Of a DNA stretch of 20,000 nt, positions 501 to 16,650 are shown piece after piece. This stretch comes from an uncultured virus (IMG/VR IMGVR_UViG_3300033066_001594) (lineage: Duplodnaviria; Heunggongvirae; Uroviricota; Caudoviricetes), in the IMG/VR virus record IMGVR_UViG_3300033066_001594, one strand, 5' to 3'. The notes beneath the pieces were generated by a model that made no database searches, was not told the origin of the DNA, and worked only from the letters and a program-made list of their open reading frames with translations. The translations under genes were made by a program, and so were the position numbers. The first letter of the stretch is position 1; every line of letters begins with the position of its first letter.

Positions 501-2204
501 ATGACCCCCAACGTCCCACTCGAAACACGAATCTCGCGTACGGCCCGCTATCTCGAGGGCGTGATGAAGGCGGGGCTCGAAGCCGGCCTTGACACCGAGA
601 AGCTGGCCTGTCTTTGTCAGGATGCCGGCGACGCGTTCTGCGTTCAGCAGTTCGGCATACCCATGATGGTGAAGCGTGCGGTTGCCAGCCCGCCCATTCC
701 CGGCGGACCCAACCTCGCCGATCCTGCCGCGTGGGGTGGGGGCGGTCAGCAACAGTCCAACGCGTCGAACAATTCACAACAGCCGCAGCCCGGTCAGCCG
801 CCGGTGGCCCCGCCGCCGCCCGGCCCGACGCTCCAGAACCCACAGGGCGTCGCACCGCTGCCGCACCGCTACAACTTCCACCTCGACGACACCGTGCACC
901 GCATCCGCCGCGACCAGATCGCTTACGCACAGAAGAAGCAGCGTGAGAGCCAGGAAGCCCAGCACTATGCGGGCGGGCCTGGCCTTGACGGCATCGCTCA
1001 GACGATGGACCCCAACGGACAAGCTGGTCAGATGGCTCAGACGCCGGCACTGGGTTCGCCTCCTGCAAGTGGTCCGTCGTCCACCAAGGCAGCGAGCATT
1101 GCCAATGACGCTATTGCAGGTGCCACGCTCGGAGGAGCCGCGGCAGCGGGCCTCGTCATCTCCAACTGGCTGGCCAATCGACGACAGGCCAAGACAGCTG
1201 CCGCCCAGCCCGTACCGTTCCATCAGCTGGGGAGGGACACACAGAACCACCTAGTGGCGGTGCACATGTTTCACCAGCGGAATCCTGAATACCAGGTCAG
1301 CAATCAGACTTATCTGACGTATAAGCCGTTCCTCGATCGAGCTGTACCCCCCAACGGCCATACGCGGGGTTCGAGGGCCTTGGGTGCACTCAAGGACGTC
1401 GGCTACGGCGTGGGTCTTGGGGCTGCCATACTTGGAGCTGGCTACGGAGTTTCTCAGCTGACAAAGAGTGCCAGCGATGCTCATTCGATCGCAGCGTCCG
1501 CCGGTCAGGTACTCGGTAACACCGTACGGGGCAACCAGTGGGCAGCACCGTTGATCGGGGCTGGCTTCGGGGCTACAGTCGGCGGACTGGGCGGACTTCT
1601 TAAGGGCGGGATACTCGGAGCGATCTCTGGGCCAAAAGGTGAACGTGGACGATACGCCAAGCGAGTCGGCGTAACTCATGGCATTTTGAGTGGCCTGGGC
1701 GGTGCGGCCTCCGGGGCTCTGATGGGTGCCGCGTACAACGCACAGGCAAACCAGGCTGGCGGCGTCAAGCAGGGCAACGTCGGCTTCCAGGCTGGACAGA
1801 GGCAGGATGGAGCGTATAAAACCGCGTCGTTCGCCGCACGTGTGCTGACGAACCAGATCAAAACCGCGAATATAGATGAAGCACTTACTGCGGCTCTGGG
1901 CGGAGGTGCCGGGGCAGTGGTAACGGCCCCCGTTGGCGGTCTCATCGGGTTGATCAGGGCCAAGGCAGCCGGAAAGTCGGGACGACGTGGGGTTCTTCAC
2001 GGTGCTATTCTCGGCGGAACCCTCGGAGCTACACGAGGTGCTATCGGCGGCTGGAATAACCCAGTACCGTGGAGTGAACTCGGTACGCCGCAAATGCCGC
2101 CGGGCTGGACTCCAGGAACACCGATTCAACCGTTTGACATGCTGCCACCGCAGCCGCCTATCGCCCCAGAGTATCAGTTTGATCAGGACCCGTTACACGC
2201 TTAA
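501..2204 (+). CDS. Gly/Ala-rich multi-glycine-zipper protein with a Pro/Gln-rich region and repeated K-x-A motifs (putative processed virion/membrane polyprotein)
   Basis: 567-aa ORF with AAGGA upstream. Several GxxxGxxxG hydrophobic segments (GVGLGAAILGAGYG, GAGFGATVGGLGG, GAILGGTLGATRG). 8 of its 18 Lys are in K-x-A. Function is inferred. Confidence 0.75.
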   Translation: MTPNVPLETRISRTARYLEGVMKAGLEAGLDTEKLACLCQDAGDAFCVQQFGIPMMVKRAVASPPIPGGPNLADPAAWGGGGQQQSNASNNSQQPQPGQPPVAPPPPGPTLQNPQGVAPLPHRYNFHLDDTVHRIRRDQIAYAQKKQRESQEAQHYAGGPGLDGIAQTMDPNGQAGQMAQTPALGSPPASGPSSTKAASIANDAIAGATLGGAAAAGLVISNWLANRRQAKTAAAQPVPFHQLGRDTQNHLVAVHMFHQRNPEYQVSNQTYLTYKPFLDRAVPPNGHTRGSRALGALKDVGYGVGLGAAILGAGYGVSQLTKSASDAHSIAASAGQVLGNTVRGNQWAAPLIGAGFGATVGGLGGLLKGGILGAISGPKGERGRYAKRVGVTHGILSGLGGAASGALMGAAYNAQANQAGGVKQGNVGFQAGQRQDGAYKTASFAARVLTNQIKTANIDEALTAALGGGAGAVVTAPVGGLIGLIRAKAAGKSGRRGVLHGAILGGTLGATRGAIGGWNNPVPWSELGTPQMPPGWTPGTPIQPFDMLPPQPPIAPEYQFDQDPLHA

Positions 2205-2213
2205 TGGTTATCA

Positions 2214-3404
2214 ATGAAACCACTCGAGATCTACGACAAGGTGATCGGCCGGCAGCCCGGCTTGTACGGTCCGCTCCACGGGGCAGGACCGGCAGCCGTT
2301 GGCCGGGCCGTCCTCGGGGCGGGCATCGGCTACGGGGCCGGCAAGCTCTTTGGTGGTACACAGAAGACCAAGCGAAACCTCGCACTCGGCGGAGCGGTGG
2401 CCAGCCTTGTTCCCAGTGGTCTGGATATGGCGACGATGCACGGACTGGGTAAGGGGATGAATGATCCGTTCCCTTATGCCCCACCTGTCCAATCTGTCCA
2501 ACCTGTCTCGCCTGTCGCCCCGCCCAAGGTCGCTAAAGACCTGAGCTGGGTGGGCGTGCAGATCCCCGGGCACCTTCGCAAGCGAATCCGCGAGATGGCC
2601 AAGGGCGTTGCTGATGAAGACCTGGTCCCGGCAAAGATCAAGAACTACGGGCAGGGACGGGAGATGAACCCGCACGTCACCGTGCTCTATGGGCTCCGCA
2701 CCAAGGACCCCAAGAAAGTTGAGCCGGTAGTGAAGGGGAAATATCCCCGCATCCCGTTCCGCCTGGGAGCCATCAGTACTTTCGAGAAGCCTGATTACGA
2801 TGTGCTCAAGATTGACGTGCACTCAGGCGACCGGCTCAAGGGTCTTTACAACCATCTCAAGTCCAACCTGCCTAACGCCGACGTGCACCCCACGTATCAC
2901 CCGCACGTGACGCTGGCGTACCTGCGTAAGGGCGTGGCCCAGAAGTACGTGGGCTCTCACCCGCTTCGCGACCAGAAGGTGGAGGTGAACAAGGTCCGCT
3001 TCTCGACCTCGGACCGCGACAACACCGACATCAAGCTGGCCACGGCCATGGACACGATGGCCGAGATCGCCCCGGCCCAGTACAGCCCCGTCTACTTCCC
3101 GTTCGAACCAGGACAGGACCACATCTCGGTCAACGGGGCAGCCAACGCCGTGCTCGCCGATCCCAAGATGTCGCTGTCGCAGAAGGCCGTTGCGTTCGAC
3201 GTGCTCAGCAAGGCGGCCGATGGTCGGGACAGCGGACTGATCACAAAGAATGACCTGGTGCGTGGGGCATTGGGTGCGGGCATGGGCTATGTCGCGGCCC
3301 AGACGATGGGCCGCGTGCTCGGTGCCGTGTTCGGGCTGGATCGGACCAGCCAGCGTCGGCTCTCGCAGGCCGGGGCGTTGGGCGGATTGTTCAACAGTCT
3401 TTGA
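2214..3404 (+). CDS. 2H phosphoesterase (2',5'-RNA ligase/LigT/Acb1-like) domain protein with flanking glycine-zipper modules
   Basis: Two HxT motifs, NPHVTVLYGL (His at 2673) and YHPHVTLAYL (His at 2904), about 77 aa apart as in the 2H fold. LGAG(I/M)GY hydrophobic modules at both termini. Confidence 0.85.
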   Translation: MKPLEIYDKVIGRQPGLYGPLHGAGPAAVGRAVLGAGIGYGAGKLFGGTQKTKRNLALGGAVASLVPSGLDMATMHGLGKGMNDPFPYAPPVQSVQPVSPVAPPKVAKDLSWVGVQIPGHLRKRIREMAKGVADEDLVPAKIKNYGQGREMNPHVTVLYGLRTKDPKKVEPVVKGKYPRIPFRLGAISTFEKPDYDVLKIDVHSGDRLKGLYNHLKSNLPNADVHPTYHPHVTLAYLRKGVAQKYVGSHPLRDQKVEVNKVRFSTSDRDNTDIKLATAMDTMAEIAPAQYSPVYFPFEPGQDHISVNGAANAVLADPKMSLSQKAVAFDVLSKAADGRDSGLITKNDLVRGALGAGMGYVAAQTMGRVLGAVFGLDRTSQRRLSQAGALGGLFNSL

Positions 3405-3415
3405 TAAGAGCCACG

Positions 3416-3709
3416 ATGCTGGGTAAACGGAAAGACCTCGTCAAGCTTGCAAGTGGTATCTACGACTTGATGCAACCTGGTGAGTACGGCAAAGACGAGG
3501 ATGGCGTGTGGTATTGCTGTGCCCCTGCACCTGTTGACAAGGACGGGTTTGGATTCCACGGGACACTCGGCGACGGCAAGGGCGACCGTGGTCACATTGT
3601 GACCGAGCATGAAGACGGGACAATCACTGTCTTTCCTTCGATTCTCATTACTCGTCACGACGGGTCTTGGCATGGCTACCTTGAACGGGGCATCTGGCGT
3701 CAGTGCTGA
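3416..3709 (+). CDS. Small Cys/His protein resembling the DUF6527 family
   Basis: C-terminal HEDGTITVFPSIL...WHGYLERGIWRQC fits the TxxPSI...HxxxxxGxW pattern I associate with DUF6527. ATG 3416 preferred over TTG 3401, which overlaps the upstream stop. Confidence 0.65.
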   Translation: MLGKRKDLVKLASGIYDLMQPGEYGKDEDGVWYCCAPAPVDKDGFGFHGTLGDGKGDRGHIVTEHEDGTITVFPSILITRHDGSWHGYLERGIWRQC

Positions 3710-3722
3710 TAGGATAAGTCAC

Positions 3723-4127
3723 ATGGACAAGATTGCTTTTCGTCGCGGTTTCCTCCTGGCCCTCGCTTCTTATGGCCTGGGCCCGGAAGAGTTTGGTCGT
3801 CTCGTTGCTGAGAAGCAGTCGGGTGTGAAGACCGCGTTCAATCCGGTGAACCTTCTTGATCCGTTCGTCGCCGCGGGCATTGGTGTCCCGTTGGCCTTGG
3901 GCACGCTTGCGGCCCGTCACAACGCTGACGGTGACGCAAACAATCTATACAGGCGGACGCGGATCAAGTACAACCCTATCAACGACGTTTCGAATGAACT
4001 GGCCCAGGCCACACGCCGGCTCCAGACGCTGAAGGATCGTCGTCAGCCCAAACCGGAGCTCCCGCGTGTCACAAGCCCAGCCCTCGGCAGCGAATCCTAT
4101 CTACAACCGCTTCCGCCAGCCCGATGA
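3723..4127 (+). CDS. Hypothetical protein with N-terminal leader ending in KTA and one hydrophobic segment
   Basis: ATG 3723 follows AGGATAAG just after the upstream stop. MDKIAFRRGFLLALASYGLGPEEF...GVKTA-FNPVNLLDPFVAAGIGVPLALGTLAA. Confidence 0.75.
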   Translation: MDKIAFRRGFLLALASYGLGPEEFGRLVAEKQSGVKTAFNPVNLLDPFVAAGIGVPLALGTLAARHNADGDANNLYRRTRIKYNPINDVSNELAQATRRLQTLKDRRQPKPELPRVTSPALGSESYLQPLPPAR

Positions 4128-4488
4128 GAGAACCCGCCGATACTTCGCGGCAGACCCCGGCGTCGAGTTCCGCGGACAAGTCCCCCTTATCAATGCCGAC
4201 GACCCGAACCAGCCGCAGGAGTTCATGGACGGCATGGCTCGGGTCTTCAACCTTGCAGATCCCCAGCAGGCCAAGGATTACAATGAGGTGATCAACAAGG
4301 TCGCACGAGGCATCGCGATCCTGTGTAGGGAGGATGTAACGTTCAGCGAGAAGACGGACAACTACGTGATCTACGCTCGCTGGATGGAACGGTTTTACGC
4401 GATGCCCGACTACACACAGAAAGAGACCAACGGTGCAGCCCAAACTCAGCCCACTCCGAACGCTCCAGTCGCCCAGATTTCTGTCTAA
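4066..4488 (+). CDS. Hypothetical globular protein (140 aa)
   Basis: GTG start with GGAG about 8 nt upstream. Strong GC3 bias; fills the gap between its neighbours with short overlaps. Confidence 0.7.
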   Translation: MSQAQPSAANPIYNRFRQPDERTRRYFAADPGVEFRGQVPLINADDPNQPQEFMDGMARVFNLADPQQAKDYNEVINKVARGIAILCREDVTFSEKTDNYVIYARWMERFYAMPDYTQKETNGAAQTQPTPNAPVAQISV

Positions 4489-6580
4489 GACGGCGGGCGT
4501 CGAGGGTCAGCAAATCTCCAACGCTCTGTGGGGCTCCAATTACCAGCCCGACTCCAACGGATTCCTGAAGGACCCGCTCCTGCTGTCACTGGGCACGGGA
4601 CTGGGGATTGCCGGCGGTTCGGCACTGGCCAAGTACCTCGGTCCGAAGAAAGATGTTCCGACGCGTCAGCAGCTCAGCCTGCTCAAGCAGCGTCAACAGG
4701 CCTTCAGCCAGGCCCTGCAGGGGTCCGGTGCCACGCCGCCGGCCAAGCTCGCAGCCGCTGTCATCGACAGGGCCTGTGAACTTGTCACCGAGAAGCGGGC
4801 GTTCTGGGAGTGGTATCTGCCCGGTGCCATGCTCGCAGGGACCGCCGCCTATGGGGCGAGCTACCCGCACTTCTACAAGAACAACGAAAGCTACATCCGG
4901 GCCAAGGCGATGCAGCGTGCCAAGAGCCGCATCCAGGCGGTCAAGCCGCCGGGCGTGCAGGTCGAGACGCTCAAGCCGGGTGAAACACCCGAACAGCTCA
5001 AGGCCTTGTCCACGTCTTCGGAAGATGTGGTGCCGATGCCGTCCGCCGACAAGCTCGCCGGCCTCCAGTACCTGGACGATCTGGACCTGTTCGCCGCCCT
5101 CTCGCATTCGCTGTACACCGCCGGTGCCCTGCAGCCGGACGACAAGCCGCTCGTCGATCTGCTCGTGAAGACAGCGACACAGCGATACGCACGGACCGAG
5201 AAAACGGCCAGCGTGAAGCTGGCGTTCTCGGCCGAAGAACTGCAGACGGTGCTGGACAACCCGAACGCCCAGCCGCAGCTTCTGTCCATGATCGACAAGC
5301 TGATGAAGCTCAAGCCCCAGGACTTTGCCGAATACGGCAGCACGCCGCAGGAGGTCGTCGCCTACATCAAAGACAAGATGTCGTACCCCTTCATGGGCAG
5401 CACGGTTGCGGACGCCCTCACGAAAAAGGTCGAGGCAACGCCTGAAATCGCTTCTGACATCGCGAACCTCAGATCGACAGCAGGCTTACCCGCGGCGTCT
5501 CAGGCTCCTGCCGCACAGGCACAGGCGGGACAACAGGGCCAGCAGGGACAACAAGGACAGGACGGACAGCAGGGCCAAGGTGGCTTGAAGTCCAAGGCCA
5601 TGGACTTGCTCATGGACCAGACACCGCAGGGTCTGCTCGGCATTCTGGGTGGTGCCGTGGGGATGGCCACAGACCATCCGATCCTCGGACTGCTCGCTAT
5701 GGTGATGGGTGCGTTTGGTGCACCGGCCGTTTCCTTCCTGGCCAAGCAGTACCCGAACGTCGGCATCCTGCAGAAGGTCAACCAGTTCATGCAGGACACC
5801 ACGCTTCGCAAGCTCGTGGACGGCTACCACGCCAAGACGCAGGAAGCGATCAAGGGCGACGCACCCCCGACTCCTCCCACGACTCCTCCCACGACTCCGC
5901 CCACGACTCCGCCTACAACTCCACCCGCAGCTACTCCGCCTACGACTCCTGGCGGAGCGACGCCGTCGGCACCTGCAACAACCACACCGACGACGCCAGC
6001 CACACCACAACCGTCGGCTGGTCTACCGTCAGCGGCTACACCGGCGACACAGACCACGGCAGCAGTGCCAGGTAGAGAGGTGAGACAGCCTGCTGAGGGG
6101 CCAACGCCCAATGTGAATCAACCTCCGACCACAGCAGCAACGCCAGGTCGAGAGGTGCGGCAGCCCGCTGAAGGGCCAACGCCCTCACTCTCTAGTCCTG
6201 GATCTGCGTCCCCGGATACGGGAAACCAGCAGCTACAGCCAGCAGGGGCTGCTCCTGCGGCCCCGGTGTCGATGCCAAAGCCACCGACGACCCCCAGTAA
6301 GGTTCCTGCACCGATGCCAGCGGCACCGCCGGCAGTTAAATCAGGCATACCGTCGCCGGCAGCGGTCCCGATGCCACCGAGCATGAAGAACATCATGTCG
6401 GGCATGCCCAAGATCGATGTTCCGGGCGGTGCTTCAGCGACAAGCCACGGCTCGTCGCTGGGTATGAAACAGATGACGGGCCAGGCCCCGGCGGCTTCGG
6501 CGACCACGTCGGTCCCGACGCCCAAGCTCAACCCGCTACCCCACGGTGTCACGGGCCTTGGGCCTAAAGTCACCGCTTAA
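4433..6580 (+). CDS. Large hypothetical protein with K-x-A motifs, hydrophobic segments and a long Pro/Thr/Ala-rich disordered C-terminus (putative virion protein)
   Basis: 715-aa ORF with SKTA, AKLA, EKRA, DKLA, VKTA, EKTA and VKLA motifs, a GLLGILGGAVG...LGLLAMVMGAFG hydrophobic hairpin, and PPTT and GQQ repeats. Confidence 0.75.
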   Translation: MQPKLSPLRTLQSPRFLSKTAGVEGQQISNALWGSNYQPDSNGFLKDPLLLSLGTGLGIAGGSALAKYLGPKKDVPTRQQLSLLKQRQQAFSQALQGSGATPPAKLAAAVIDRACELVTEKRAFWEWYLPGAMLAGTAAYGASYPHFYKNNESYIRAKAMQRAKSRIQAVKPPGVQVETLKPGETPEQLKALSTSSEDVVPMPSADKLAGLQYLDDLDLFAALSHSLYTAGALQPDDKPLVDLLVKTATQRYARTEKTASVKLAFSAEELQTVLDNPNAQPQLLSMIDKLMKLKPQDFAEYGSTPQEVVAYIKDKMSYPFMGSTVADALTKKVEATPEIASDIANLRSTAGLPAASQAPAAQAQAGQQGQQGQQGQDGQQGQGGLKSKAMDLLMDQTPQGLLGILGGAVGMATDHPILGLLAMVMGAFGAPAVSFLAKQYPNVGILQKVNQFMQDTTLRKLVDGYHAKTQEAIKGDAPPTPPTTPPTTPPTTPPTTPPAATPPTTPGGATPSAPATTTPTTPATPQPSAGLPSAATPATQTTAAVPGREVRQPAEGPTPNVNQPPTTAATPGREVRQPAEGPTPSLSSPGSASPDTGNQQLQPAGAAPAAPVSMPKPPTTPSKVPAPMPAAPPAVKSGIPSPAAVPMPPSMKNIMSGMPKIDVPGGASATSHGSSLGMKQMTGQAPAASATTSVPTPKLNPLPHGVTGLGPKVTA
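5528..5583 (+). repeat. Coding 9-bp tandem repeat (GQQ)n
   Basis: GQQGQQGQQGQDGQQGQGG in the 715-aa ORF. Confidence 0.75.
5864..5950 (+). repeat. Coding 12-bp tandem repeat (PPTT)n
   Basis: ccN-ccc-acg-act units encoding PPTPPTTPPTTPPTTPPTTPPAATPPTTP. Confidence 0.85.
6068..6184 (+). repeat. Duplicated 14-aa motif PGREVRQPAEGPTP (6068-6109 and 6143-6184)
   Basis: Identical peptide twice, with only synonymous differences between the two DNA copies. Confidence 0.85.
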
Positions 6581-6586
6581 TGGCCG

Positions 6587-6604
6587 CTTCCAGTAAGCTG
6601 GAAG
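6587..6604 (+). promoter_or_regulatory. Hairpin CTTCCAG-TAAG-CTGGAAG overlapping the ribosome-binding region of the RNAP gene
   Basis: Perfect 7-bp inverted repeat ending 4 nt before ATG 6609. No U-tract, so it is not a classic intrinsic terminator. Confidence 0.45.
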
Positions 6605-6608
6605 GACC

Positions 6609-9600
6609 ATGGCAAGTCAACCACTCAGCCCACAACACGATGCACCGGCTCCCATTGAGCCGGTGCATCGTGATTTCCTGGATGTACCGTCCACCCGTCA
6701 GGGCCTGTTTGACGGCGTGATCGGGTCGATTAAGACCAGTTACCCGGTGTCGAACAACCAGTTCGAGCTGCACATCGAGAATCCCAAGTACACGGCGACG
6801 CCCAAGTACAGCATCGCCGACCAGAAAAACGCGATCCTCAAGCAGCAGAGCCTGACCTGGCCGATCAAGGGCGACTGGGTGCTGAAGGACAAGCAGGGTC
6901 AGGAGATCCACCGCGTCAAGAACAAGCTGATCGCCCGCGTGCCGTACATGACCGATCGCGGTACGTTCATCTACAACGGCACCGAGTGGACGGTCTCGAA
7001 CCAGCAGCGGCTGCGTTCAGGTGCCTACGCCCGCCAGAAGGAGAACGGTGACCTGGAGAACCACGTCAACCTGATCCCCGGCACGGGCAAGAGCTTCCGC
7101 CTGCACATGGAGCCTGACACTGGTGTGTTCAAGATCCAGGTCGAGCAGAGCCACATGCCCCTCTTCCCGGTGCTGCGTGCACTGGGTGCCTCTCCGAAGG
7201 ACTTTATCGATCACTGGGGTCACGACCTGTACATGGCCAACGCCCGGCAGGGAGATCCGCAGACCGTTGCCAAGGTGTTCGGCAAGCTGGCCCGCACCGC
7301 ACAGCTCGAACAGTTCAAGCATGACCCGGCCCTTGGCATCCGCGAGATCTTCGCCAAGGCGGGACTCGACCCGGAGGTGAGTCAGCGGAACCTGGGGGCC
7401 CCGCACGCCAGCGTGGACGCACCCATGCTGCTGGCGGCCACGCGGAAGCTCCTGCACATTCACCAGGGCAAGGCCGAGCCGGACGACCGCGACTCGCAGG
7501 CCAATCAGACGGTGCACGGCCCGGAGGACCTGTTCGCCGAACGCATCACCAAGGACTCGGGACGCATCGCCAAGCAGCTCCTGTGGAAGGCGACGCACAA
7601 CCGCAACCTCAACCACATCTCCTCGTCAGCCTTGACGCCGCAGCTCAACTCGGTGCTGCTGACCAGCGGCCTGGGTTCCCCGCTGTCAGAAATCAACCCC
7701 GTCGAGATCCTCGACCAGCTGGCTCGCGTGTCGCGTCTTGGTGACGGCGGCATGGGTTCGAGCGACGCCATTCCCATGGAGGCTCGCAGCGTCCAGCCCT
7801 CGCAGATGGGCTACATCGATGTCGTGGCCGGCCCCGAGTCAGGAAACATCGGTGTCGACACCCGTGCGGCGTGGGGTACGCGGAAGGGCAAGGACAACCT
7901 CCTCTACCAGCAGATGATCAACGTCCGGACGGGCAAGCCCGAGTACCGCTCGGCACGCGACACCGTTCACAGTGTGCTGGCGTTCCCCGGTGAGATGGAG
8001 AAGAACTCCTCGTCGGTCCGAGCCATGGTCGACGGCCGCATGACGTACGTGCCGAAAGAAAAAGTGGACTACGTGGTGCCCAGTGGCAACCACATGTTCG
8101 CGTTGACGACCAACCTCATTCCCGGCCTCTCCGGCATCAAGGGCGGCCGTGCTCTGATGGGTGCCAAGATGGTCAAGCAGGCTCTGCCCATGGTCAACGC
8201 CGAGGCCCCGCTCGTGCAGTCGGCTCACCCGGATGGCGGGAGTTTCCACGAACACCTGGGACGGTTGATGGGGACGGTGCATGCCGCGACCGACGGAATT
8301 GTCCAACGTGTTGGACGAGATTCGATTCACGTCCGCCACGCCGACGGCTCGCTCAAAGAGCACGAGTTGTATGACAACTTTCCGTTCAATGCCAAGAGCG
8401 TCAGCGGCAACAGCCTGGTCGAAGTAAGGAAGAAAAATAAAAAGGTTTGGACGGGGGCGATCCAGGACTACGTATCTCAGGAAGGAGATTTTGTTCGGTC
8501 CATTCATCCCGTAACACACCAGTCCGCGTGGATGCCAATCACAGGGTTCATAAAACACAGGAACGATAAAAAGCTGTACCGCATTACAACTGCATCCGGT
8601 CGTCACGTGGTTGTAACCGAAGACCACAGCTTAGTTACTGTTGGAGACGCCGGTCAGCTCGTGTCCGTATTTCCTAAGGATTGTGTGGTGGGTGAGACTA
8701 GACTCCCCGTCGCCACGATTCCTAATACGACAACCCTGTTTGATTGGTCCTACGATTTAGGCGTGGTTGCTGGCTTGTACCTCTCTGAAGGTCACATTCC
8801 AAAAGCTCAACCGAACCTGATTAATATCGCGGTCGCTCCTGATGTTAGAGCTGCTGAAGTAAAGGAGTTGCTTATTCGGGTTAGTACGAGCGGACGTAAG
8901 CCATTCCGGAATGGGGGCAGCGTTTGTCTGACTGACGTAAACCTGTCTAAATGGTTACAGCAACACTTCGGACGAATGTCTCATTTCAAGTTTGTGTCAG
9001 ACGCGGTTCTTAATGCCCCAGAGCCGTTCCGTCGCGGACTCGTCAACGGGTACATGGGCGGGGATGGTACTCTAGCCATCGACAGCAATAACGCCGTCCA
9101 GATCAACGCTTACAGTATGTCGAGGAATCTGCGTGACGGCCTGGTACGTGTCCTAGCGTCATTGTCTGTGTTCTGCTCTGTAGACGACAGTCGATCGTCC
9201 CCAGAAGGTCCGGTTTACGGCTTTCGAGTCATCTCATCTCACCTGACGAAGCTGGACCGATGGTTCTGTTACGAAGACCGACACGTCAAGTTCCAGGCCA
9301 CTACCAGCAAGACGTACCGATCATCCCCCTACTCTGCGATTCCTGTGCCAAAATCTCGTAAGGCTCGTAAAGCCCTCTACACGGACAACAAGCCAAACAT
9401 GTTTGTGTACAAAACAGCGAGTCTAGGTTTTGTTGCGAAGGAGCGTGTAGCTAAGTTCAAAGGCCCATACGGACGCTGGGGCCGATCCGACGTTATGTGG
9501 GACATGATCACAGACATTTCGCCCGTACCGCACGAGGATTATGTTTACGACTTTTCTGTGGGCGGATCTGAGAACTTTGCTGTAAATCACGGTCTAGTTG

Positions 9601-12600
9601 TTCACAACACGTTTGTGCACAGCACGCCGGTCGTCAAGCCGGGCGATCCGGTCACCGCCGGTCAGCTCCTGGCCAAGAGCAACTACACCAACGACAAAGG
9701 CGAGCTGGCACTGGGCCTGAATTTCAAGACCGGGTACATGCCGTACCAGTCGGAGCACGGCTCTGTGGCCGCTGACACCCACGTGCTGTGGTACGACAGC
9801 GACAATCAGCCACATTTCGGACCTGTTGAGACTGTAAGTGACGCTGTTAAAGCGTTAGCGTTAGATCCTAGATCACTTAAGACGTCTCCCCTCGGGATCA
9901 CTAAGCTGTGGGCTCACCCGCCAACTGGCGGTATGTCTGAAGTGATTACATCCTCCGGTCGACGTGTAGTCGCAACTGATAACCACAGCTTCGTAACTTT
10001 GAACGATGACGGGCAACTTGTGGAGTCTAAAACTACGGGACTCACACCCAAGGTGTCTTGGATTCCTCGTCTCGGGCGGGTTGACCTGCCCGTAACAACT
10101 ACAACGGCAGAGCTTGGATCCAAGACGTTGCCTGCGATTGTGCTTCCGCTGTCCGCCGATTTAGGATTTGTTGTTGGCATGTATCTCGCTGAAGGATACG
10201 TGCGGCTACACAAAAACGTCGACTTCGCGGTCACTGATCCTTTACTCCGTGTCCATCTTGTGGGGGCACTTCAACGGTTGTTACCGCACGCGACGATCTC
10301 AGACAAGCCTCAGAATCCTTACATTCGTGTGTACTGTTCTCGCCTTGCTCAGTGGCTGGAACAGACCTGTGGAAAGCTCGCACAGCGAAAGTTTGTGCCT
10401 GGTGCTGCTTTTGGGGCTCCTTTGGTGTTCCGTCTAAGCCTCCTCGCAGGTTTCTGGGCAGGCGATGGTCGTGTCTCGAGCAAACAGTCAGTACCGACAG
10501 ACACTGACACCCTTATCACGTCAAAGAGACTCCGTGACGGTCTGGGATTACTTTTCGCCAGCGTGGGTATTAGCACCACGCACGGCCAGTACACCGATGC
10601 TGCTTACTCGGAAGGGGTTGTGTACCGCCTTGGCATTAGCTGCCGTGACTTGAATAAATTTCCTACATTCCCGCACTCAGTTAAAGCGGCTCGTCTTGAT
10701 GAGATCGTGCGTAGTTACAAGGGCTGTGGGTCTGCAGATCACGTTCCTATCCCGCGTAATGCTGCAAAGGCGTACCAACAATGTGGACGGGGGCAAGGTC
10801 GTCGGGTCTACAACCGCCTCCAGGCTCAGGCCAAGGCGAGCACTGCTAATAGAGACGACGTATTGCGGTACGTGCCGGCTGATTCTCAAGACCCAGCACT
10901 CCAAGCTCTTCGACGGTTGGCTATCTCACCTATCGAGTGGGATCGCATTGAGTCTATTCAACCTAAGACCTACGTGGGGCTGGTTTATGACTTCGACATG
11001 GCTCCACTTCGTACGTTTGTTTGTGTTGATACGCTGGTAGTCCACAACTCCAACTACGAGGATGCCATCGTCATCAGCGAGGCGGCTGCCAAGCGTCTGA
11101 CCAGCGAGCACATGAAGCAGCAGACGTACGACCCGTCTGCCGAGGGCGTGAAGGTCGACCGCAATCACTACCTCTCGGTCTTCCCGACCAAGTTCAACCG
11201 GGATCAGCTCAACAGCATCGGGGACGACGGTGTGGTCAAGCCCGGCACGCGGGTGACCCACGGCGATCCGCTGGTCCTGTCGGTCAAGACCAAGAAGCCG
11301 CAGCAGGGCATGAGTGCGTTGCACCGTCACAACAAGAGCTATACCAACGACGACGCCCTCACCTGGACGTTCAAGCACCCGGGCGTCGTGACCGACGTGC
11401 ACCACGGTAACGACGGCATCAAGGTGACGGTCAAGAGCTATCACTCGATGCAGGTCGGCGACAAGCTTTCCGGTGCTTTCGGCGACAAGGGCGTGTGCGG
11501 GGCCATCGTCCCGGACGACCAGATGCCACGCGGCAGCGACGGCCAGCCTCTCGAGGTCCTGCTCAACCCGCTCGGGGCGATTACCCGCACCAACCCCAGC
11601 CAGTTGATCGAGGCGGCACTGGGCAAGGTCGCGGCCAAGACCGGCAAGAAATACGTCCTGCCGTCGTTCGGCACCGATCTGCTCAAGTACGCCATGAGCG
11701 AGCTGGAGAAGAACGGCCTCAGCGACACCGACAAGGTGTACGACCCGCACACCCGGCGGACCAACGAGGTCTTCACCGGCAACCGGTTTCTCTACAAGCT
11801 GTACCACGAGGCAGAATCCAAGGAGACGGGCCGATCGGACGCCGGCAGCTACACGAGTGAAGGTCAGCCGGCCAAGACCAAGGAAGAGTCGGCCAAGCGA
11901 CTGGGCCTGCTCGACATGAACGCCCTGATCTCTCACGGCGTGCCTGCCGTCATCCGCGACAGCAAGCTGGTCCGCGGCCAGCGGAATGACGCCTACTGGG
12001 CAGCCTTCCGGTCCGGCCAGACGCCGCCGGCACCCGAGACGCCGTTCATCTACAACAAGTGGCTTGCCCACCTGCAGGGGTCAGGCGTTCACATTCGTGA
12101 CACGGCCCACGGCCTGCAGCTCATGGCCATGCGTGACAAGGACGTCGACCAGCTCTCACGGGGTGCTCTGACCCACGGCGACTCGGTGAGTCTCAAGGAC
12201 AACAAGCCCATTCCTGGTGGCTTGTTCGACGTCGGACTGACGGGTGGTCACCACGGGCAGAATTGGACACACCTGGACCTGAGCGAGCCGATTCCCAACC
12301 CGGTGATGGAAGAGCCGGTCCGTCGGCTGCTCGGCCTGACACAGAAGGAGTTCGAACAGCGGCTCGCGTCCCCGGAAGGGACCCACTGGTTCAAGGACAA
12401 GCTCGCGTCACTGGACGTCGATAAGGAGATCACCAGCCAGCGTCGACTGATCGAATCAGGCCGCAGGTCCAAGCGTGACGAGGCGGTCAAGAAGCTGGGC
12501 TACCTGACCACGCTCAAGCAGACAGGTATCAAGCCCCAGGAACTGCTGATGAGCAAGTTCCCGGTCATTCCGCCAGCGATGCGTCCTGTGACCAAGGTCG

Positions 12601-14882
12601 GCAACATGCAGCTGACCTCAGACGCCAACTTCCTGTACCAGGAGCTGCACAAGGCGTCCGAGAACCTGAGGGAGGCCAGAGAAGCGGGTCTCGAGTCCGG
12701 GACCGAACGTCTGGATCTCTACAACGCGGCCAAGGCCGTCAGCGGCCTGGGCGATCCGCTCTCCCGCAAGCTGCAGGAGAAGGGCGTCGCCGGCCTGCTC
12801 ACGCACGTATTCGGCAAGGGCAGTCCCAAGGGCGGCCAGTTCCAGCGTCGGCTTATCGGCGGGACGCTCGACACGGTCGGACGTGCGGCCATCACGCCGA
12901 ACCCGACCATGGACATGGACCACGTGGGTATTCCTGAATCCAAAGCCTGGCAGGTGTACCGGCCGTTCATCATGCGTCGTCTGGCCCGGCAGTACAACGT
13001 AGGGGCAGAGGCCAAGGTCCCGGTCACTGAGCTGGCCCAGTGGGTTGCCAGAAAAGACCCAAGGGCCAAGCAAGCGTTGCTGGACGAGATGCAGGAGCGT
13101 CCGGTCATGATCAACCGGGCACCGGTGTGGCACCGCTACGGCTACATGGCGGCCTGGCCCAAGCTCGTGAAGGGTGAGACGCTGCACATCAGCCCGATCA
13201 CGACCACTGGCTTTGGTGCCGACTTTAATGGTGATAGTTTTATTAGTTGTAGCGTTCCTTGTGTCATAAATGGCGAATTTCACGTAGGTTCCATCGAATC
13301 ACTGGTGGCTAAGATAATACCTGGATTTAGTGAGCACAATGCCTTAAAGTGGTGGGGTAAGCAGACAACTATTTTCCCCGTTACCTCTGGAGGTCTTCTC
13401 GTGCTTGGACTTGATAAGGACAAAAAGGCCAGTTTTGTCGAAGCTTCCCATATCAGCATTCACACGTCACACGGGCCAGACTGTTTCCGTGTGACTTCTG
13501 ATTGCGGCCTCGACGCAACTTTTACAGCACATCACAATTTCTTCGTCCTGGATGAACGCTGTGAGCTAGTACCAGTCAAGACGGAGCAAGTGCACCCAGA
13601 CGGACTGATTCCTTACGTGCGTAAGTTCCAGTTGCCCCAGGATGGTCGATCGCCGCTGGACGCACCAAATCCATTCGAGCTGACGTTTGAGACTGGTTTC
13701 TGGTTTGGCCACTACTTGGGCGACGGTTCGATTACAGGTCGTCGTGACACAATTAGCCAGGCCGCGTGTGACGCCGGTCTTCTTGGCTACGTGGAGGCAA
13801 TCGGATCCCAAATCTTTAAAGGCATCACGCCGTGGCGTGAAGGGAACAATTGTTCAACGCGTTGGACAAACACGGCGTGGGTTCGATTCTTTGAAAGCTG
13901 GGGGTGTCTTGCCGCGTCAAAACAGATACCCGGGTGGATGGTTCAATCGAACGACGAGTTTCGTCGTGGGCTCCTCGCTGGGTTCATTGCAGCAGAAGGT
14001 AGTGTTACTAAACAGGCGGTACGCATCGAGATCGTAAATCGATCAATGCTGCTTCAGTTCAAGTTCATCGCAGAGTCGTTTGGGTGCATCTGTCGAATGG
14101 GTAAAGGTAAGGAGGCTACAGATCGTAAACAGGCCACGTACCTACTTCGTATTAGTGATCTAAAATCGGCCAACATTAAGTGGCCAAGCTTTCCACGTGT
14201 TCAGCGATTTGCGACTCTGACTGTGGGAAGACGTAATTGGGATCTCGTCCCGTTACCAGAATCCGTCACTGAAGTCTGCGAGGCTCAAGGTAAGAAGATG
14301 GCAGGCTCTGCGGGAGCCGCTTACCGGAAGTCATTAAACAGGAGTCGCCACGCCCCAGAGTACAAACAGTTTACGATCGCAGCAAAAGAACAGGTATGTA
14401 CACGAGAGTTCGCAAAGTGGATCATCGACGGTTACGGATTGAGAACGCTGGACGATGTGACTATTTGTAATTGGATCAGCTGGGTGGATAACCCAACGGT
14501 CTATTGGGACAAGATTCGTACTGTCGAGAAAGTGGACCGTCCACCTGTGACGTATGACTTCAGCGTCCCTGGACACGAGGCCTTTGCAATTGACGGCACG
14601 TGTCTGACTCACAACACGATGAACTACTCGGTGCCCGTGTCCGAGGACGCCGTCCGCGAGGCCATCGACAAGATGATGCCGAGCAGGAACCTGTTCTCGA
14701 CCCGTGACTTTGGCGTGCACATGATGCCCCGGCAGGAATACCTGCACGGCCTGTTCGCGGCAACCCGCCGCATCCGCGAAGACCGGCCGACTCGTACCTT
14801 TGCCAGCAAGCAGGATGTGCTGCGGTCCCTGCGACGGGGTGAAATCGGCGTCGACGATCCTGTGGAGATAGTCGGACGGTAA
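6609..14882 (+). CDS. rpoBC: DNA-directed RNA polymerase beta subunit fused to the N-terminal half of beta', with three inteins (2757-aa precursor, about 1464 aa spliced)
   Basis: Beta motifs: VPYMTDRGTFIYNGTE, GPESGNIG, RALMGAKMVKQA, NYEDAIVIS, GDKLSGAFGDKG, LLNPLG, KLYH. Beta' motifs in the same frame: KPIPGGLFD, PVIPPAMRP, SDANFLY, NRAPVWHR, GADFNGD/TMNYSVP. Confidence 0.95.
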   Translation: MASQPLSPQHDAPAPIEPVHRDFLDVPSTRQGLFDGVIGSIKTSYPVSNNQFELHIENPKYTATPKYSIADQKNAILKQQSLTWPIKGDWVLKDKQGQEIHRVKNKLIARVPYMTDRGTFIYNGTEWTVSNQQRLRSGAYARQKENGDLENHVNLIPGTGKSFRLHMEPDTGVFKIQVEQSHMPLFPVLRALGASPKDFIDHWGHDLYMANARQGDPQTVAKVFGKLARTAQLEQFKHDPALGIREIFAKAGLDPEVSQRNLGAPHASVDAPMLLAATRKLLHIHQGKAEPDDRDSQANQTVHGPEDLFAERITKDSGRIAKQLLWKATHNRNLNHISSSALTPQLNSVLLTSGLGSPLSEINPVEILDQLARVSRLGDGGMGSSDAIPMEARSVQPSQMGYIDVVAGPESGNIGVDTRAAWGTRKGKDNLLYQQMINVRTGKPEYRSARDTVHSVLAFPGEMEKNSSSVRAMVDGRMTYVPKEKVDYVVPSGNHMFALTTNLIPGLSGIKGGRALMGAKMVKQALPMVNAEAPLVQSAHPDGGSFHEHLGRLMGTVHAATDGIVQRVGRDSIHVRHADGSLKEHELYDNFPFNAKSVSGNSLVEVRKKNKKVWTGAIQDYVSQEGDFVRSIHPVTHQSAWMPITGFIKHRNDKKLYRITTASGRHVVVTEDHSLVTVGDAGQLVSVFPKDCVVGETRLPVATIPNTTTLFDWSYDLGVVAGLYLSEGHIPKAQPNLINIAVAPDVRAAEVKELLIRVSTSGRKPFRNGGSVCLTDVNLSKWLQQHFGRMSHFKFVSDAVLNAPEPFRRGLVNGYMGGDGTLAIDSNNAVQINAYSMSRNLRDGLVRVLASLSVFCSVDDSRSSPEGPVYGFRVISSHLTKLDRWFCYEDRHVKFQATTSKTYRSSPYSAIPVPKSRKARKALYTDNKPNMFVYKTASLGFVAKERVAKFKGPYGRWGRSDVMWDMITDISPVPHEDYVYDFSVGGSENFAVNHGLVVHNTFVHSTPVVKPGDPVTAGQLLAKSNYTNDKGELALGLNFKTGYMPYQSEHGSVAADTHVLWYDSDNQPHFGPVETVSDAVKALALDPRSLKTSPLGITKLWAHPPTGGMSEVITSSGRRVVATDNHSFVTLNDDGQLVESKTTGLTPKVSWIPRLGRVDLPVTTTTAELGSKTLPAIVLPLSADLGFVVGMYLAEGYVRLHKNVDFAVTDPLLRVHLVGALQRLLPHATISDKPQNPYIRVYCSRLAQWLEQTCGKLAQRKFVPGAAFGAPLVFRLSLLAGFWAGDGRVSSKQSVPTDTDTLITSKRLRDGLGLLFASVGISTTHGQYTDAAYSEGVVYRLGISCRDLNKFPTFPHSVKAARLDEIVRSYKGCGSADHVPIPRNAAKAYQQCGRGQGRRVYNRLQAQAKASTANRDDVLRYVPADSQDPALQALRRLAISPIEWDRIESIQPKTYVGLVYDFDMAPLRTFVCVDTLVVHNSNYEDAIVISEAAAKRLTSEHMKQQTYDPSAEGVKVDRNHYLSVFPTKFNRDQLNSIGDDGVVKPGTRVTHGDPLVLSVKTKKPQQGMSALHRHNKSYTNDDALTWTFKHPGVVTDVHHGNDGIKVTVKSYHSMQVGDKLSGAFGDKGVCGAIVPDDQMPRGSDGQPLEVLLNPLGAITRTNPSQLIEAALGKVAAKTGKKYVLPSFGTDLLKYAMSELEKNGLSDTDKVYDPHTRRTNEVFTGNRFLYKLYHEAESKETGRSDAGSYTSEGQPAKTKEESAKRLGLLDMNALISHGVPAVIRDSKLVRGQRNDAYWAAFRSGQTPPAPETPFIYNKWLAHLQGSGVHIRDTAHGLQLMAMRDKDVDQLSRGALTHGDSVSLKDNKPIPGGLFDVGLTGGHHGQNWTHLDLSEPIPNPVMEEPVRRLLGLTQKEFEQRLASPEGTHWFKDKLASLDVDKEITSQRRLIESGRRSKRDEAVKKLGYLTTLKQTGIKPQELLMSKFPVIPPAMRPVTKVGNMQLTSDANFLYQELHKASENLREAREAGLESGTERLDLYNAAKAVSGLGDPLSRKLQEKGVAGLLTHVFGKGSPKGGQFQRRLIGGTLDTVGRAAITPNPTMDMDHVGIPESKAWQVYRPFIMRRLARQYNVGAEAKVPVTELAQWVARKDPRAKQALLDEMQERPVMINRAPVWHRYGYMAAWPKLVKGETLHISPITTTGFGADFNGDSFISCSVPCVINGEFHVGSIESLVAKIIPGFSEHNALKWWGKQTTIFPVTSGGLLVLGLDKDKKASFVEASHISIHTSHGPDCFRVTSDCGLDATFTAHHNFFVLDERCELVPVKTEQVHPDGLIPYVRKFQLPQDGRSPLDAPNPFELTFETGFWFGHYLGDGSITGRRDTISQAACDAGLLGYVEAIGSQIFKGITPWREGNNCSTRWTNTAWVRFFESWGCLAASKQIPGWMVQSNDEFRRGLLAGFIAAEGSVTKQAVRIEIVNRSMLLQFKFIAESFGCICRMGKGKEATDRKQATYLLRISDLKSANIKWPSFPRVQRFATLTVGRRNWDLVPLPESVTEVCEAQGKKMAGSAGAAYRKSLNRSRHAPEYKQFTIAAKEQVCTREFAKWIIDGYGLRTLDDVTICNWISWVDNPTVYWDKIRTVEKVDRPPVTYDFSVPGHEAFAIDGTCLTHNTMNYSVPVSEDAVREAIDKMMPSRNLFSTRDFGVHMMPRQEYLHGLFAATRRIREDRPTRTFASKQDVLRSLRRGEIGVDDPVEIVGR
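8397..9608 (+). mobile_element. Intein 1 with LAGLIDADG homing endonuclease (404 aa) in RNAP beta
   Basis: Starts SVSGNSLV; block B VVVTEDH; LAGLIDADG-like VAGLYLSEG and VNGYMGGDG; ends VVHN followed by Thr. Removal gives FPFNAK-TFVHSTP, matching E. coli RSNQN-TCINQMP. AT-richer codons. Confidence 0.92.
9762..11048 (+). mobile_element. Intein 2 with LAGLIDADG homing endonuclease (429 aa) in RNAP beta
   Basis: Starts SVAADTHV; block B VATDNH; VGMYLAEG and LAGFWAGDG; ends VVHN followed by Ser. Removal gives MPYQSEHG-SNYEDAI, matching MPWNGYNFEDSI. Confidence 0.92.
13236..14615 (+). mobile_element. Intein 3 with LAGLIDADG homing endonuclease (460 aa), directly after the catalytic DxxGD motif of beta'
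   Basis: Starts SFISCSVP; block B FTAHH; FGHYLGDG and LAGFIAAEG; ends CLTHN followed by Thr. Removal gives GADFNGD-TMNYSVP, matching NADFDGD-QMAVHVP. Confidence 0.92.
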
Positions 14883-14891
14883 GATGGGCGT

Positions 14892-15299
14892 ATGGACTTT
14901 GCACAACGTGTTTTGAGTGGACAGATCAAGACGGCCGGCTTTGCCAGCCTCGCCGGTAAAGCCATCGGTACCGTTGCCAAGCCGATTCTCAAGAGCTTTG
15001 GCCGGGGTGCGGCTACGGCGGCACCCGCCGCAGACCTCGGGGCGTCCAAAGGGTTTTCGCTGCTCAACACGCTGCGATCCCCGAAGGTGAACCTGGCGGC
15101 AGGCGGTGCGGCTGTCGGACTCGGGGCGATCAACAACGCTGTCAGTACCGGTGACCAGGTCCAGGCTTATGACGCCAAATCGATGGCCGGTAACTACGAC
15201 AACACGGTGCGGCCGTTGCTGGGTGCCAGCATGCTGGTCGGAGCCCCTATCGCCGCTTATCTGGCAACCCGCAAAAACGAAGTTGACGACGAACCCTGA
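14892..15299 (+). CDS. Small hypothetical membrane-type protein with N-terminal leader ending in KTA
   Basis: 135 aa. MDFAQRVLSGQIKTA leader; hydrophobic segments LAAGGAAVGLGAI and LLGASMLVGAPIAAYLA. Confidence 0.75.
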   Translation: MDFAQRVLSGQIKTAGFASLAGKAIGTVAKPILKSFGRGAATAAPAADLGASKGFSLLNTLRSPKVNLAAGGAAVGLGAINNAVSTGDQVQAYDAKSMAGNYDNTVRPLLGASMLVGAPIAAYLATRKNEVDDEP

Positions 15300-15340: not shown

Positions 15341-16150
15341 ATGTCCCGATTTTCAACACCGACCCGCTTCAACCCCTCGCTTCTCCGAGCCGCACAGGAG
15401 GGGATTGCCGCGACCAAGACGGCGTTCGTCGCGTTCGGCCCCAACGGCGAAGTGGCCGCCCAGCAGCAACAGCCAGGTGCCCAGCAAGCCGGCGGTGCTC
15501 CCCAGCCCGGCATGCCGCCGCAGGGCGACCCGTCCGGTGGCGGTCAAGCCGCTGCACCGCCGCAAGCTCCGCCTCAACAACCCCAGCAGCCCCCGCAACA
15601 GCCGACCGCTGGTGGCATGGGTGATCCGGGACAAGCCGACCAGATGCGTGCGGTTCTTCGCGAGGAGCTGGAACGCAACGAGCAGAAGCCCAAGAAGCTC
15701 ACCATTCAGGACCGGATGACCCAGCTCGAAGGCCTGGTCCTTCGCGTGATGGAGCACAACGGCCTGATCCCGACCGACCCCAACCTCGTCAACCAGCAGC
15801 CATCATCCACGGGCGTCGATGCCCCGGCCAACACCGGTGCGACTCCGCCGGCAGGTGCCCCGCCCGCCTCGGGTGGTGCTCCGGCGGGACCGGCCGCGGG
15901 TGCCATGAAGACGGCAGCCATGCGTGACCCGATCCTGCAATCCCTGCTCTGGTCGGTTCGAGAACAGATGGAACTTGGAATGCAGGAGATGGAGCGGACG
16001 GCTGCCGAGCTGTCTGACGCCCCGGTCGTCGGCAGCGTCGACTACAACCCCATCCCGACACAGCTGGTGGCAAACCAGGACATCTTCGATCACCCCGAAG
16101 GTCACTCGTTCGCGTCCATGATCAATTCCATTTACAACGACGACCAATGA
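15341..16150 (+). CDS. Gln/Pro/Gly-rich hypothetical protein with a central helical segment and two KTA motifs
   Basis: 269 aa with ATKTA and MKTAA motifs. Its stop overlaps the next start (ATGA at 16147-16150). Confidence 0.75.
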   Translation: MSRFSTPTRFNPSLLRAAQEGIAATKTAFVAFGPNGEVAAQQQQPGAQQAGGAPQPGMPPQGDPSGGGQAAAPPQAPPQQPQQPPQQPTAGGMGDPGQADQMRAVLREELERNEQKPKKLTIQDRMTQLEGLVLRVMEHNGLIPTDPNLVNQQPSSTGVDAPANTGATPPAGAPPASGGAPAGPAAGAMKTAAMRDPILQSLLWSVREQMELGMQEMERTAAELSDAPVVGSVDYNPIPTQLVANQDIFDHPEGHSFASMINSIYNDDQ

Positions 16151-16650
16151 TCCTGCTGATCGGGCAATTCCAAGGGATGGCACTCAAGCCGATCCGCCTG
16201 GAAGGTGTTACCTCTGTCCTCATCAAACGGGCCATTGGCGATCAGCCGACGGGGCCGATCGCCGCCATCCTTCAGCTCACCCCCAACTCGTACTGGATCA
16301 GCTCACGGGGCGATGATGACTTCCAGTCGACGATCGATGACCTGGGGCTGACCCGGCTTGCCGTGCTCTTGGAAGCTGTAGTGCGATACCCGTCGTTCCT
16401 GTCCGTGCAGGTGATGCAGGGCCTCCAGGCCACGACCCATCTCGTGGACGTGGACCACGTGGCCGTGCTGGACGAGTTCGACCAGGCGATCTTCCTGGCC
16501 CGTATGGTCACAAGCTCTTCCGCGTGGCTGGGCCGGCTGAAGGACAAGGACTTTGACAAGCAACTGGATGCCCTGGGCCTGGGTCAGAGTACACTGAACG
16601 TGGACAGCCTTAATCAAGATGATTACCTCACCGGGACAATTGCTGGTTAA
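16147..16650 (+). CDS. Hypothetical protein made of two tandem ~70-aa repeats, coupled to the beta'-C gene
   Basis: YWISSRGDDDFQSTIDDLGL versus AWLGRLKDKDFDKQLDALGL. ATGA coupling upstream and a 32-nt overlap with the downstream gene. Confidence 0.75.
   Translation: MILLIGQFQGMALKPIRLEGVTSVLIKRAIGDQPTGPIAAILQLTPNSYWISSRGDDDFQSTIDDLGLTRLAVLLEAVVRYPSFLSVQVMQGLQATTHLVDVDHVAVLDEFDQAIFLARMVTSSSAWLGRLKDKDFDKQLDALGLGQSTLNVDSLNQDDYLTGTIAG

Follow-up and report, generated by a model that had tools for sequence, protein, structure and literature searches.

The propeptides of phage T4 are 10 to 19 residues long and have been proposed as a way of recruiting varied cargo, according to the T4 sections of two papers (PMC9026906, PMC5694885). 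The first ten residues of IPIII suffice for the packaging of foreign proteins, and the propeptide of IPII is identical, in the T4 account of one of them (PMC9026906). The cleavage sites given in the same sections have the form P3-x-P1, with LIE in T4 and AxE or SxE in SPN3US and phiKZ (PMC9026906, PMC5694885). Shared, cleaved targeting leaders are thus known from T4 and are suspected for gp53 and gp54 of SPN3US. Here, we describe a 13-residue peptide that occurs twice in a 20,000-base stretch of DNA (the window), which makes up the final 20 kb of a 71,462-base contig (37% complete) of a large uncultured tailed phage, IMG/VR record IMGVR_UViG_3300033066_001594. One copy lies inside a long protein, P0001, and the other opens a short orphan protein, P0002; both end in a Lys-x-Ala (KxA) motif, here K-T-A (Table 1). 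We lean toward reading this peptide, hereafter the leader, as a real lineage-specific element in two unrelated proteins that likely serves as a capsid-targeting propeptide and would be cut after Lys-x-Ala.

The two copies lie in frame on the plus strand, where a preliminary description of the window had placed them. They agree in 10 of 13 residues but in only 25 of 39 bases, and the same codon is used for 3 of the 10 identical residues, when 4.1 would be expected under fully randomized synonymous sites. By the Nei-Gojobori method, the proportion of synonymous differences (pS) was 0.81 and that of nonsynonymous differences (pN) was 0.21 over the 13 codons. The copies in strains and relatives agree with this, and the earlier statement that conservation is at the level of the protein holds. 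A six-frame scan of the whole contig found 10 of 10 specified residues at these two places and no more than 5 elsewhere. The sequences around the copies are unrelated, as had also been reported for the parts that follow them: 6 of 30 bases match on each side, and BLASTP of P0001 against P0002 gave no clear likeness apart from the leader. To place this pair among others, the 25 KxA sites in the window's proteins other than RNA polymerase (RNAP) were compared in all 300 pairs, with the K-x-A itself left out. In the leader pair, 7 of the 10 residues upstream of KxA match, and none of the other 299 pairs exceeds 3; seven upstream matches arose in 3 of 20,000 column shuffles. Judged from these comparisons, the leader pair is the product of descent and of selection on the peptide rather than of chance.

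The internal copy is bridged by contigs from three other runs, belonging to three studies (X2, X6, and X8), and is therefore not an assembly artifact. It directly follows a K-T-A-S sequence (within Y-K-T-A-S) and so is placed between two KxA sites. In P0002, 15 residues lead up to and include K-T-A, which is within the 10- to 19-residue range of T4-type N-terminal propeptides. Hydrophobic moments were 0.54 for the internal and 0.47 for the N-terminal leader, with F, V, L, and I on one face of the predicted helix.

Close strains of this phage are contained in sludge metagenomes, and their leaders bear on selection at both loci. The strain variant of the internal copy is FATRVLTNQIKTA. The bridging contig of X2 has 24 differences in all, two of them in the leader, one synonymous and one an A-to-T replacement at the free third position; X6 carries the same two leader changes, and the leader of X8 is identical to that of the window. 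At the second locus, a related phage that differs at 32 of 188 bases of the RNAP end occurs in all four runs (three studies). This phage departs from the alignment five bases past the RNAP stop and then reads ATG-GAC-TTC-AAA-ACA-CGC-GTA-CTC, or M-D-F-K-T-R-V-L. Compared with the P0002 leader, F, R, V, and L are kept, all four with different codons; this peptide was read by eye from 30 letters, which stop short of the KTA end. The DNA that follows it (379 letters in X2) does not align to the window gene at 80%.

When P0001 was searched against 1.84 billion representatives, six homologues were found, all confined to its N-terminal 185 to 207 residues. In the closest, P0003 (69% identity), a short linker joins the N-terminal module to SFATKVLTGQIRTA, which forms the C terminus. 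Its cluster mate from another source, P0009, has equal length and an L-to-P replacement in the leader, which places a helix-breaking Pro there. Both share 11 of 14 residues with the internal copy, and the preceding 250 residues of P0001 have no counterpart in them. The motif was absent from the other five P0001 homologues, P0002 had no homologue at an E value of ≤1, and neither protein had a family in Pfam, PHROG, or the ESM Atlas, where hits stayed below 0.9. The leader therefore occurs at N-terminal (P0002), internal (P0001), and C-terminal (P0003 and P0009) positions. The consensus FAxRVLxxQIKTA of the preliminary description is too strict, since positions 2 and 3 vary and one homologue has K replaced by R, but its core, F-x-x-[RK]-V-L, is conserved, as far as the aligned sequences go, in close relatives at both loci. 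The preliminary description had named loss of the motif from homologues of either protein as grounds for dropping its reading, and these homologues do not refute it.

Beyond these relatives, the exact peptide was not recovered. The exact back-translated motif had no match in IMG/VR and none in Joint Genome Institute (JGI) metagenome contigs. In a fuzzy six-frame scan of 1.26 Mb (the window plus 94 related loci, L001 to L094), the best other scores were ≤32, versus 51 for the leader, and fell mostly in noncoding frames; a match in the capsid protein of Salmonella phage Arash (score 29) lies inside this background tail and was set aside. A profile of three copies, run against proteins of 71 to 2000 residues, recovered only its inputs among 2272 candidates, which is a weak test because the motif is short. 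The idea that the leader is general thus fails, the exact match being absent from both databases, the distant P0001 homologues, and the 94 loci; by these searches, the exact peptide is lineage specific.

The design of the leader spreads further than its sequence. Among 27 further phages or loci, four (G001, G002, L037, and G004) have a segment before KxA that is common to different proteins at a threshold of ≥6 of 10 residues, and 2 more of the 27 sets reach 5 of 10. Four of 27 is a lower bound, because most sets are only 20-kb loci. G001 has five copies of LG[RE]xL[FY]RK[LM]A, one of them internal; G002 has the shared leader MTRYExGFLxKCA; and L037 has three copies of its own shared leader, one of them internal. 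In L006, the gene directly after the RNAP gene starts with MAFNYKLIGQIKKA, a weak likeness to the start of P0002. In Arash, the helix with KxA is repeated inside one scaffold-like protein only, and the 40-kb stretch examined holds no leader common to two proteins. Each lineage has its own helix before KxA.

KxA sites were counted in 639 distinct open reading frames (ORFs) other than RNAP from the window and related loci, using simple ORF calls and excluding L013 and L014. K-x-A was the most enriched one-gap pair, with an observed-to-expected ratio (O/E) of 1.50 over all positions, rising to 2.68 within the first 35 residues; in 126 RNAP-like ORFs, the O/E was 1.03. Comparison pairs gave 0.99 (R-x-A) and 0.88 to 1.01 (K and A at other spacings). 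Arash gave 1.98 for 9 head-module proteins against 0.95 for 13 proteins of the tail, helicase, sigma, and RNAP classes. The phage's own contig gave 1.56 for the 11 ORFs of this cluster against 1.00 for its 43 others, and 28 proteins of Vibrio phage Va2 gave 1.13. Hydrophobic residues are enriched at positions -2 and -1 before KxA across the family.

The placement of KxA in relatives may point to a head protease. Homologues of Arash gp222 and of the Arash capsid protein were found in all five relatives searched. In the capsid protein N-arm, KxA occupies one alignment column, at about residues 21 to 29, in 6 of 6 proteins (Arash and the five relatives), and the middle residues differ. In all five gp222 homologues, the conserved domain is preceded by an invariant K-x-A and followed at once by an invariant Lys that opens K-x-A-type sites. 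Four of the five members match PHROG 18299, "head maturation protease" (best E value, 1.7e-6), and the homologues match Rhodococcus phage E3 gp77, which is annotated as a prohead protease. The gene lies upstream of scaffold and capsid genes, as seen in the gp222-gp226 stretch of Arash; in all five relatives, it stands 3.6 to 4.2 kb before the one for the capsid protein. Arash gp222 (L013:33093-34568), annotated merely as "structural protein," is by these sequence criteria likely a prohead protease, and gp223 looks like a scaffold with repeated helix-plus-KxA units. By analogy, KxA would be the P3-x-P1 site of a protease of the T4 gp21 or herpesvirus assemblin type, cut after Ala. Herpesvirus assemblins have an Ala-Ser cleavage site. 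Head proteases of phage G and of group 3 jumbo phages are named in the available text of two papers, which gives no cleavage site (PMC12484599, PMC7824862). The leader pair had been considered the strongest support for the K-x-A model, but the sites on the capsid protein, scaffold, and protease of relatives are stronger. In the Bxz1-like Mycobacterium phage Pleione (L108; gp91, gp99, and gp100), a homologous protease domain opens a 1369-residue protein, and head proteins are enriched in both R-x-A and K-x-A.

At its KxA sites, P0001 divides into the conserved N-terminal module and several others that are hydrophobic and rich in Gly and Ala, and the region around it is hypervariable among strains. 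In X2, the joint returns 123 bases with 168 other letters between, which amounts to a duplicated module with a period of 291 bases. One X6 contig aligns over 1107 to 1193, continues with 451 other letters, and resumes at 1189, for a net gain of 456 bases that falls exactly at CCAAG (1189 to 1193), coding the A-K of A-K-T-A. Both gains (291 and 456 bases) are multiples of three, the frame being judged from these lengths. X4 and X6 have different loose ends before 1071. The cargo behind the internal leader is weakly like module 325-439 of P0001 (E value, 0.009), and glycine-zipper clusters are among its Atlas matches, under the bar. Next to P0001, ORF 2214-3404 encodes a 2H phosphoesterase (PF13563) between K105-V-A and K274-L-A, with a weak Acb1 hit (E value, 0.0035); the syntenic L001 protein has the same ends and no 2H domain. 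Two other candidates, L006:1881 and L010:2369, proved not to be orthologues of this ORF and were disregarded. From its sequence and bracketing sites, this domain is a candidate capsid-packaged enzyme against the cyclic oligonucleotide-based antiphage signaling system (CBASS). L005 and L010 have further KxA-rich ORFs with 2H domains. The suggestion that the long protein grew by fusion of units is supported, at the sequence level, by modules joined at KxA, by strain gains, and by the differing C termini of homologues. ORF 2214-3404 follows the same pattern. The support does not extend to the direction of leader copying.

Under the reading that we favor, the leader would form an amphipathic helix that binds the prohead core, and the phage's own head maturation protease would cut after K-T-A, freeing the cargo. 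P0001 is predicted to be a capsid-internal polyprotein, whose Gly-rich hydrophobic modules would come free within the head and enter the host by ejection; the hydrophobic Gly-rich cargo segments suggest insertion into the host membrane after ejection. Its leader, standing between two KTA sites, would be released as a 14-residue peptide. The two copies may go back to a single gene start that was copied through recombination, and the internal copy would have arrived with its cargo, when a leader-cargo unit was fused in frame downstream of a KTA site already present. Two further candidates were rejected. A 12-base likeness just ahead of both copies (GATGG(A)GCGTAT at 1806 to 1817 and 14883 to 14893, unique to these places in the contig) suggested a relic of a gene start but is weak, with a post hoc P of 0.01 to 0.07; it is hard to reconcile with synonymous sites that are saturated, and it is not kept at that place in the related phage. 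Translation from a separate start ahead of the internal leader was also discarded, as there is no in-frame ATG, GTG, or TTG from the GGAG at 1809 to the motif.

Several observations weigh against a cleaved targeting leader. Midway along a protein that already has an N-terminal module, a targeting signal looks redundant, and 23 of the 27 other sets have no shared leader at the ≥6 of 10 threshold. P0003 and P0009 end at ...GQIRTA, with no cargo and with K replaced by R, and R-x-A is unenriched (O/E, 0.99); the stop after QIRTA rests on two equal-length members from different sources. This cargo-less C-terminal copy could have decayed once its cargo was lost, or it could serve a role that requires no cleavage, such as binding that does not depend on position. 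The earlier notion of a portable leader with a cleavage signal accordingly stands in part: the leader is common to unrelated cargo, but a purely N-terminal leader does not explain this copy. The z values for KxA enrichment are inflated, because relatives are not independent, and two gains that are both multiples of three are expected by chance 1 time in 9. The KxA of the capsid protein aligns inside the deposited chain of phage G gp27 (6WKK), so it could be structural there. A model of the protease-like protein (pLDDT, 51) aligned by VIA-align to the varicella-zoster virus protease (1vzv; Z, 5.1; root mean square deviation [rmsd], 4.1; 108 aligned) and to T4 gp21 (5jbl; Z, 4.7; rmsd, 3.6; 119 aligned), but the model is poor and these matches are weak, below an unrelated top match with a Z of 5.6. 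The protease-like protein had no sequence match in the PDB. No protease homologue was found in the phage's own contig (37% complete), so the protease link rests on relatives. The literature searched yielded no measured cut or packaging for this phage family.

An alternative is that the helix is an extended docking site that improves the adjacent KxA as a protease substrate, prohead targeting being left to other parts of the protein. This would account for the helix always abutting K/R-T-A, for its working equally at N-terminal and internal positions, for the different helices before KxA in different phages, and for the family-wide hydrophobic enrichment just before the site. However, 299 of the 300 KxA pairs match in ≤3 of 10 residues; a helix in common is thus missing from most KxA sites and is not required by the protease. 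In T4, moreover, the targeting residues of the propeptide are described as separable from the cleavage residues in the T4 account of PMC9026906. We regard docking as unlikely, although it deserves serious thought.

The helix could instead be a permanent interaction element for scaffold or inner-body assembly, with KxA an uncut part of a structural motif. Such a role would suit the copy that persists at a C terminus with K replaced by R, the capsid KxA whose aligned counterpart is part of the deposited phage G chain, and the repeated helix-plus-KxA units of the scaffold-like Arash gp223. It does not suit the bracketing by KxA of the protease domain in 5 of 5 relatives and of the inserted 2H phosphoesterase, the position of KxA at the ends of short N-terminal extensions, or its agreement with the P3-x-P1 pattern of T4 and SPN3US sites, and we consider a permanent element improbable.

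That the copies are functionless leftovers of gene fragment duplication in a fast-shuffling region is highly improbable. The region is indeed hypervariable, the peptide is restricted to very close relatives, and the P0009 copy carries a helix-breaking Pro. Nevertheless, 10 of 13 residues are kept with synonymous sites near saturation, and F, R, V, and L persist, each under a changed codon, in an independent relative whose adjoining DNA no longer aligns. Chance or convergence on a low-complexity background, for which it can be said that the K-T-A of a common motif gives three of the ten matches and that the pair was chosen after the fact, is refuted for practical purposes by the 7 matches among the remaining 10 residues, a level that 3 of 20,000 shuffles reach over all pairs, and by the third and fourth copies at orthologous places.

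Extending the propeptide reading, we tentatively suggest, as a possibility short of being probable, that these phages, a large and mostly uncultured lineage, build their injected cargo as evolvable cassette arrays. In such arrays, leader-cargo units bounded by KxA would turn over in frame within polyproteins on the time scale of strains, the helices would be lineage specific and position independent, and a protease of undescribed specificity (Ala at P1, Lys at P3) would free membrane-active peptides and antidefense enzymes, such as the Acb1-like phosphoesterase, in the head. If this is true, the injected proteome could be read from sequence, with leaders marking cargo and KxA marking mature ends. 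In-frame gain and loss of KxA-bounded modules would show rapid swapping of ejected effectors. A position-independent targeting helix would extend the T4 rule of N-terminal signals and would offer a short tag for loading large capsids. Cultured relatives, including Bxz1-like mycobacteriophages, make the protease specificity directly testable.

The remaining features of the window are listed in Table 1. The fused RNAP is 2757 residues long and has three intein stretches and LAGLIDADG domains; the L001 form has 1448 residues and is intein free. About 920 metagenome stretches match the RNAP patterns of this widespread phage group, and the RNAP genes are flanked by Gly/Pro-rich ORFs with no Pfam or PHROG family. 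The RNAP ORF of G004 (L010:6539) has an extra start stretch containing INKHALVAGFDLLLKES, which resembles a fused KxA leader; this may hint that the RNAP is packaged. ORF 3723-4127 begins with MDKIAFRRGFLLALA, which belongs to a family-wide leader class, F/Y-x-x-G-F…K-x-A, found in 25 of 227 leaders, and the N terminus of P0001 resembles a variant of this class. ORF 4433-6580 has seven KxA sites and a Pro/Thr-rich tail with a direct 13-residue repeat, GREVRQPAEGPTP, and TTPP tandem repeats.

Table 1. Coordinates of the leader copies and of associated features in the window
Feature	Position	Strand	Remarks
P0001, 567-residue modular protein	501..2204	+	8 KxA sites; no Pfam or PHROG family
Conserved N-terminal module of P0001, about residues 1-185	501..1055	+	6 homologues are shorter proteins that differ after this module
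Module from STKAA (K at 1086) to RRQAKTA (K at 1191)	1071..1199	+	Duplicated or extended in strains X2 and X6
KxA site K440-T-A, 5' of internal leader	1818..1826	+	
Internal leader copy, FAARVLTNQIKTA	1830..1868	+	P0001 residues 444-456; predicted amphipathic helix ending K-T-A
Putative cargo behind internal leader	1869..2201	+	Gly/Ala-rich hydrophobic segment (467-485), basic loop, second Gly-rich segment, Pro-rich tail
Fused beta/beta-prime-N RNA polymerase with inteins	6609..14882	+	Marker for fetching relatives
P0002, 135-residue orphan, gene directly after RNA polymerase gene	14892..15299	+	Leader plus two Gly/Ala-rich hydrophobic segments
N-terminal leader copy, FAQRVLSGQIKTA	14898..14936	+	P0002 residues 3-15
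Family-conserved Pro/Gln-rich protein	15341..16150	+	Own putative N-terminal propeptide ends K-T-A-F
RNA polymerase beta-prime C-terminal part, one intein	16619..19615	+	

Among known systems, the phage resembles, by its RNAP genes, the multisubunit RNAP-encoding Caudovirales (mReC; Weinheimer and Aylward 2020, PMC7481178), being likewise an uncultured tailed phage with cell-like beta and beta-prime subunits; the consulted part of that paper does not deal with the processing of head proteins. Its closest cultured phages by RNAP, at about 31% identity, are Salmonella phage Arash and Vibrio phages D69, D148, and D181, which have a related RNAP, protease-like gene, and capsid protein but lack the leader of this phage. 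The Bxz1-like Ceeclamvirinae, Rhodococcus phage E3, and, by its capsid fold, phage G are more distant relatives. Neither a Lys-x-Ala site nor internal leader copies turned up in a literature search whose scope left out most subscription papers and all supplements.

SPN3US and phiKZ, which belong to another lineage, offer a partial parallel. In the available accounts, SPN3US gp53 and gp54 have identical N-terminal 15 residues on diverged head proteins (PMC5694885, PMC10052503), as the leader here is common to two proteins; however, gp53 and gp54 are paralogues (34% identity), whereas the two cargos here are unrelated. Several sites per propeptide, virion RNAP genes among the head genes, and an ejection protein with a transmembrane helix are also described for these phages (PMC5694885, PMC10052503), but their sites, A-x-E for the gp245 protease, are Glu specific. 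The capsid targeting sequence (CTS) of T4 IPI, IPII, and IPIII, removed by the prohead protease gp21, offers another comparison: in both cases, a short propeptide, putative in this phage, is found on proteins with unrelated mature parts and ends in a three-residue P3-x-P1 motif. A likeness in sequence would not be expected. The function of the CTS has been demonstrated in T4 and is proposed here by analogy. The putative site differs, being K-x-A rather than the (L/I)-x-E of gp21, and so does the placement, since the CTS is confined to N termini and the leader is found also inside a long protein and at a C terminus. To these systems, this locus adds two things at the level of sequence: selection on one leader, seen directly among strains, and frame-preserving module turnover at a KxA junction.

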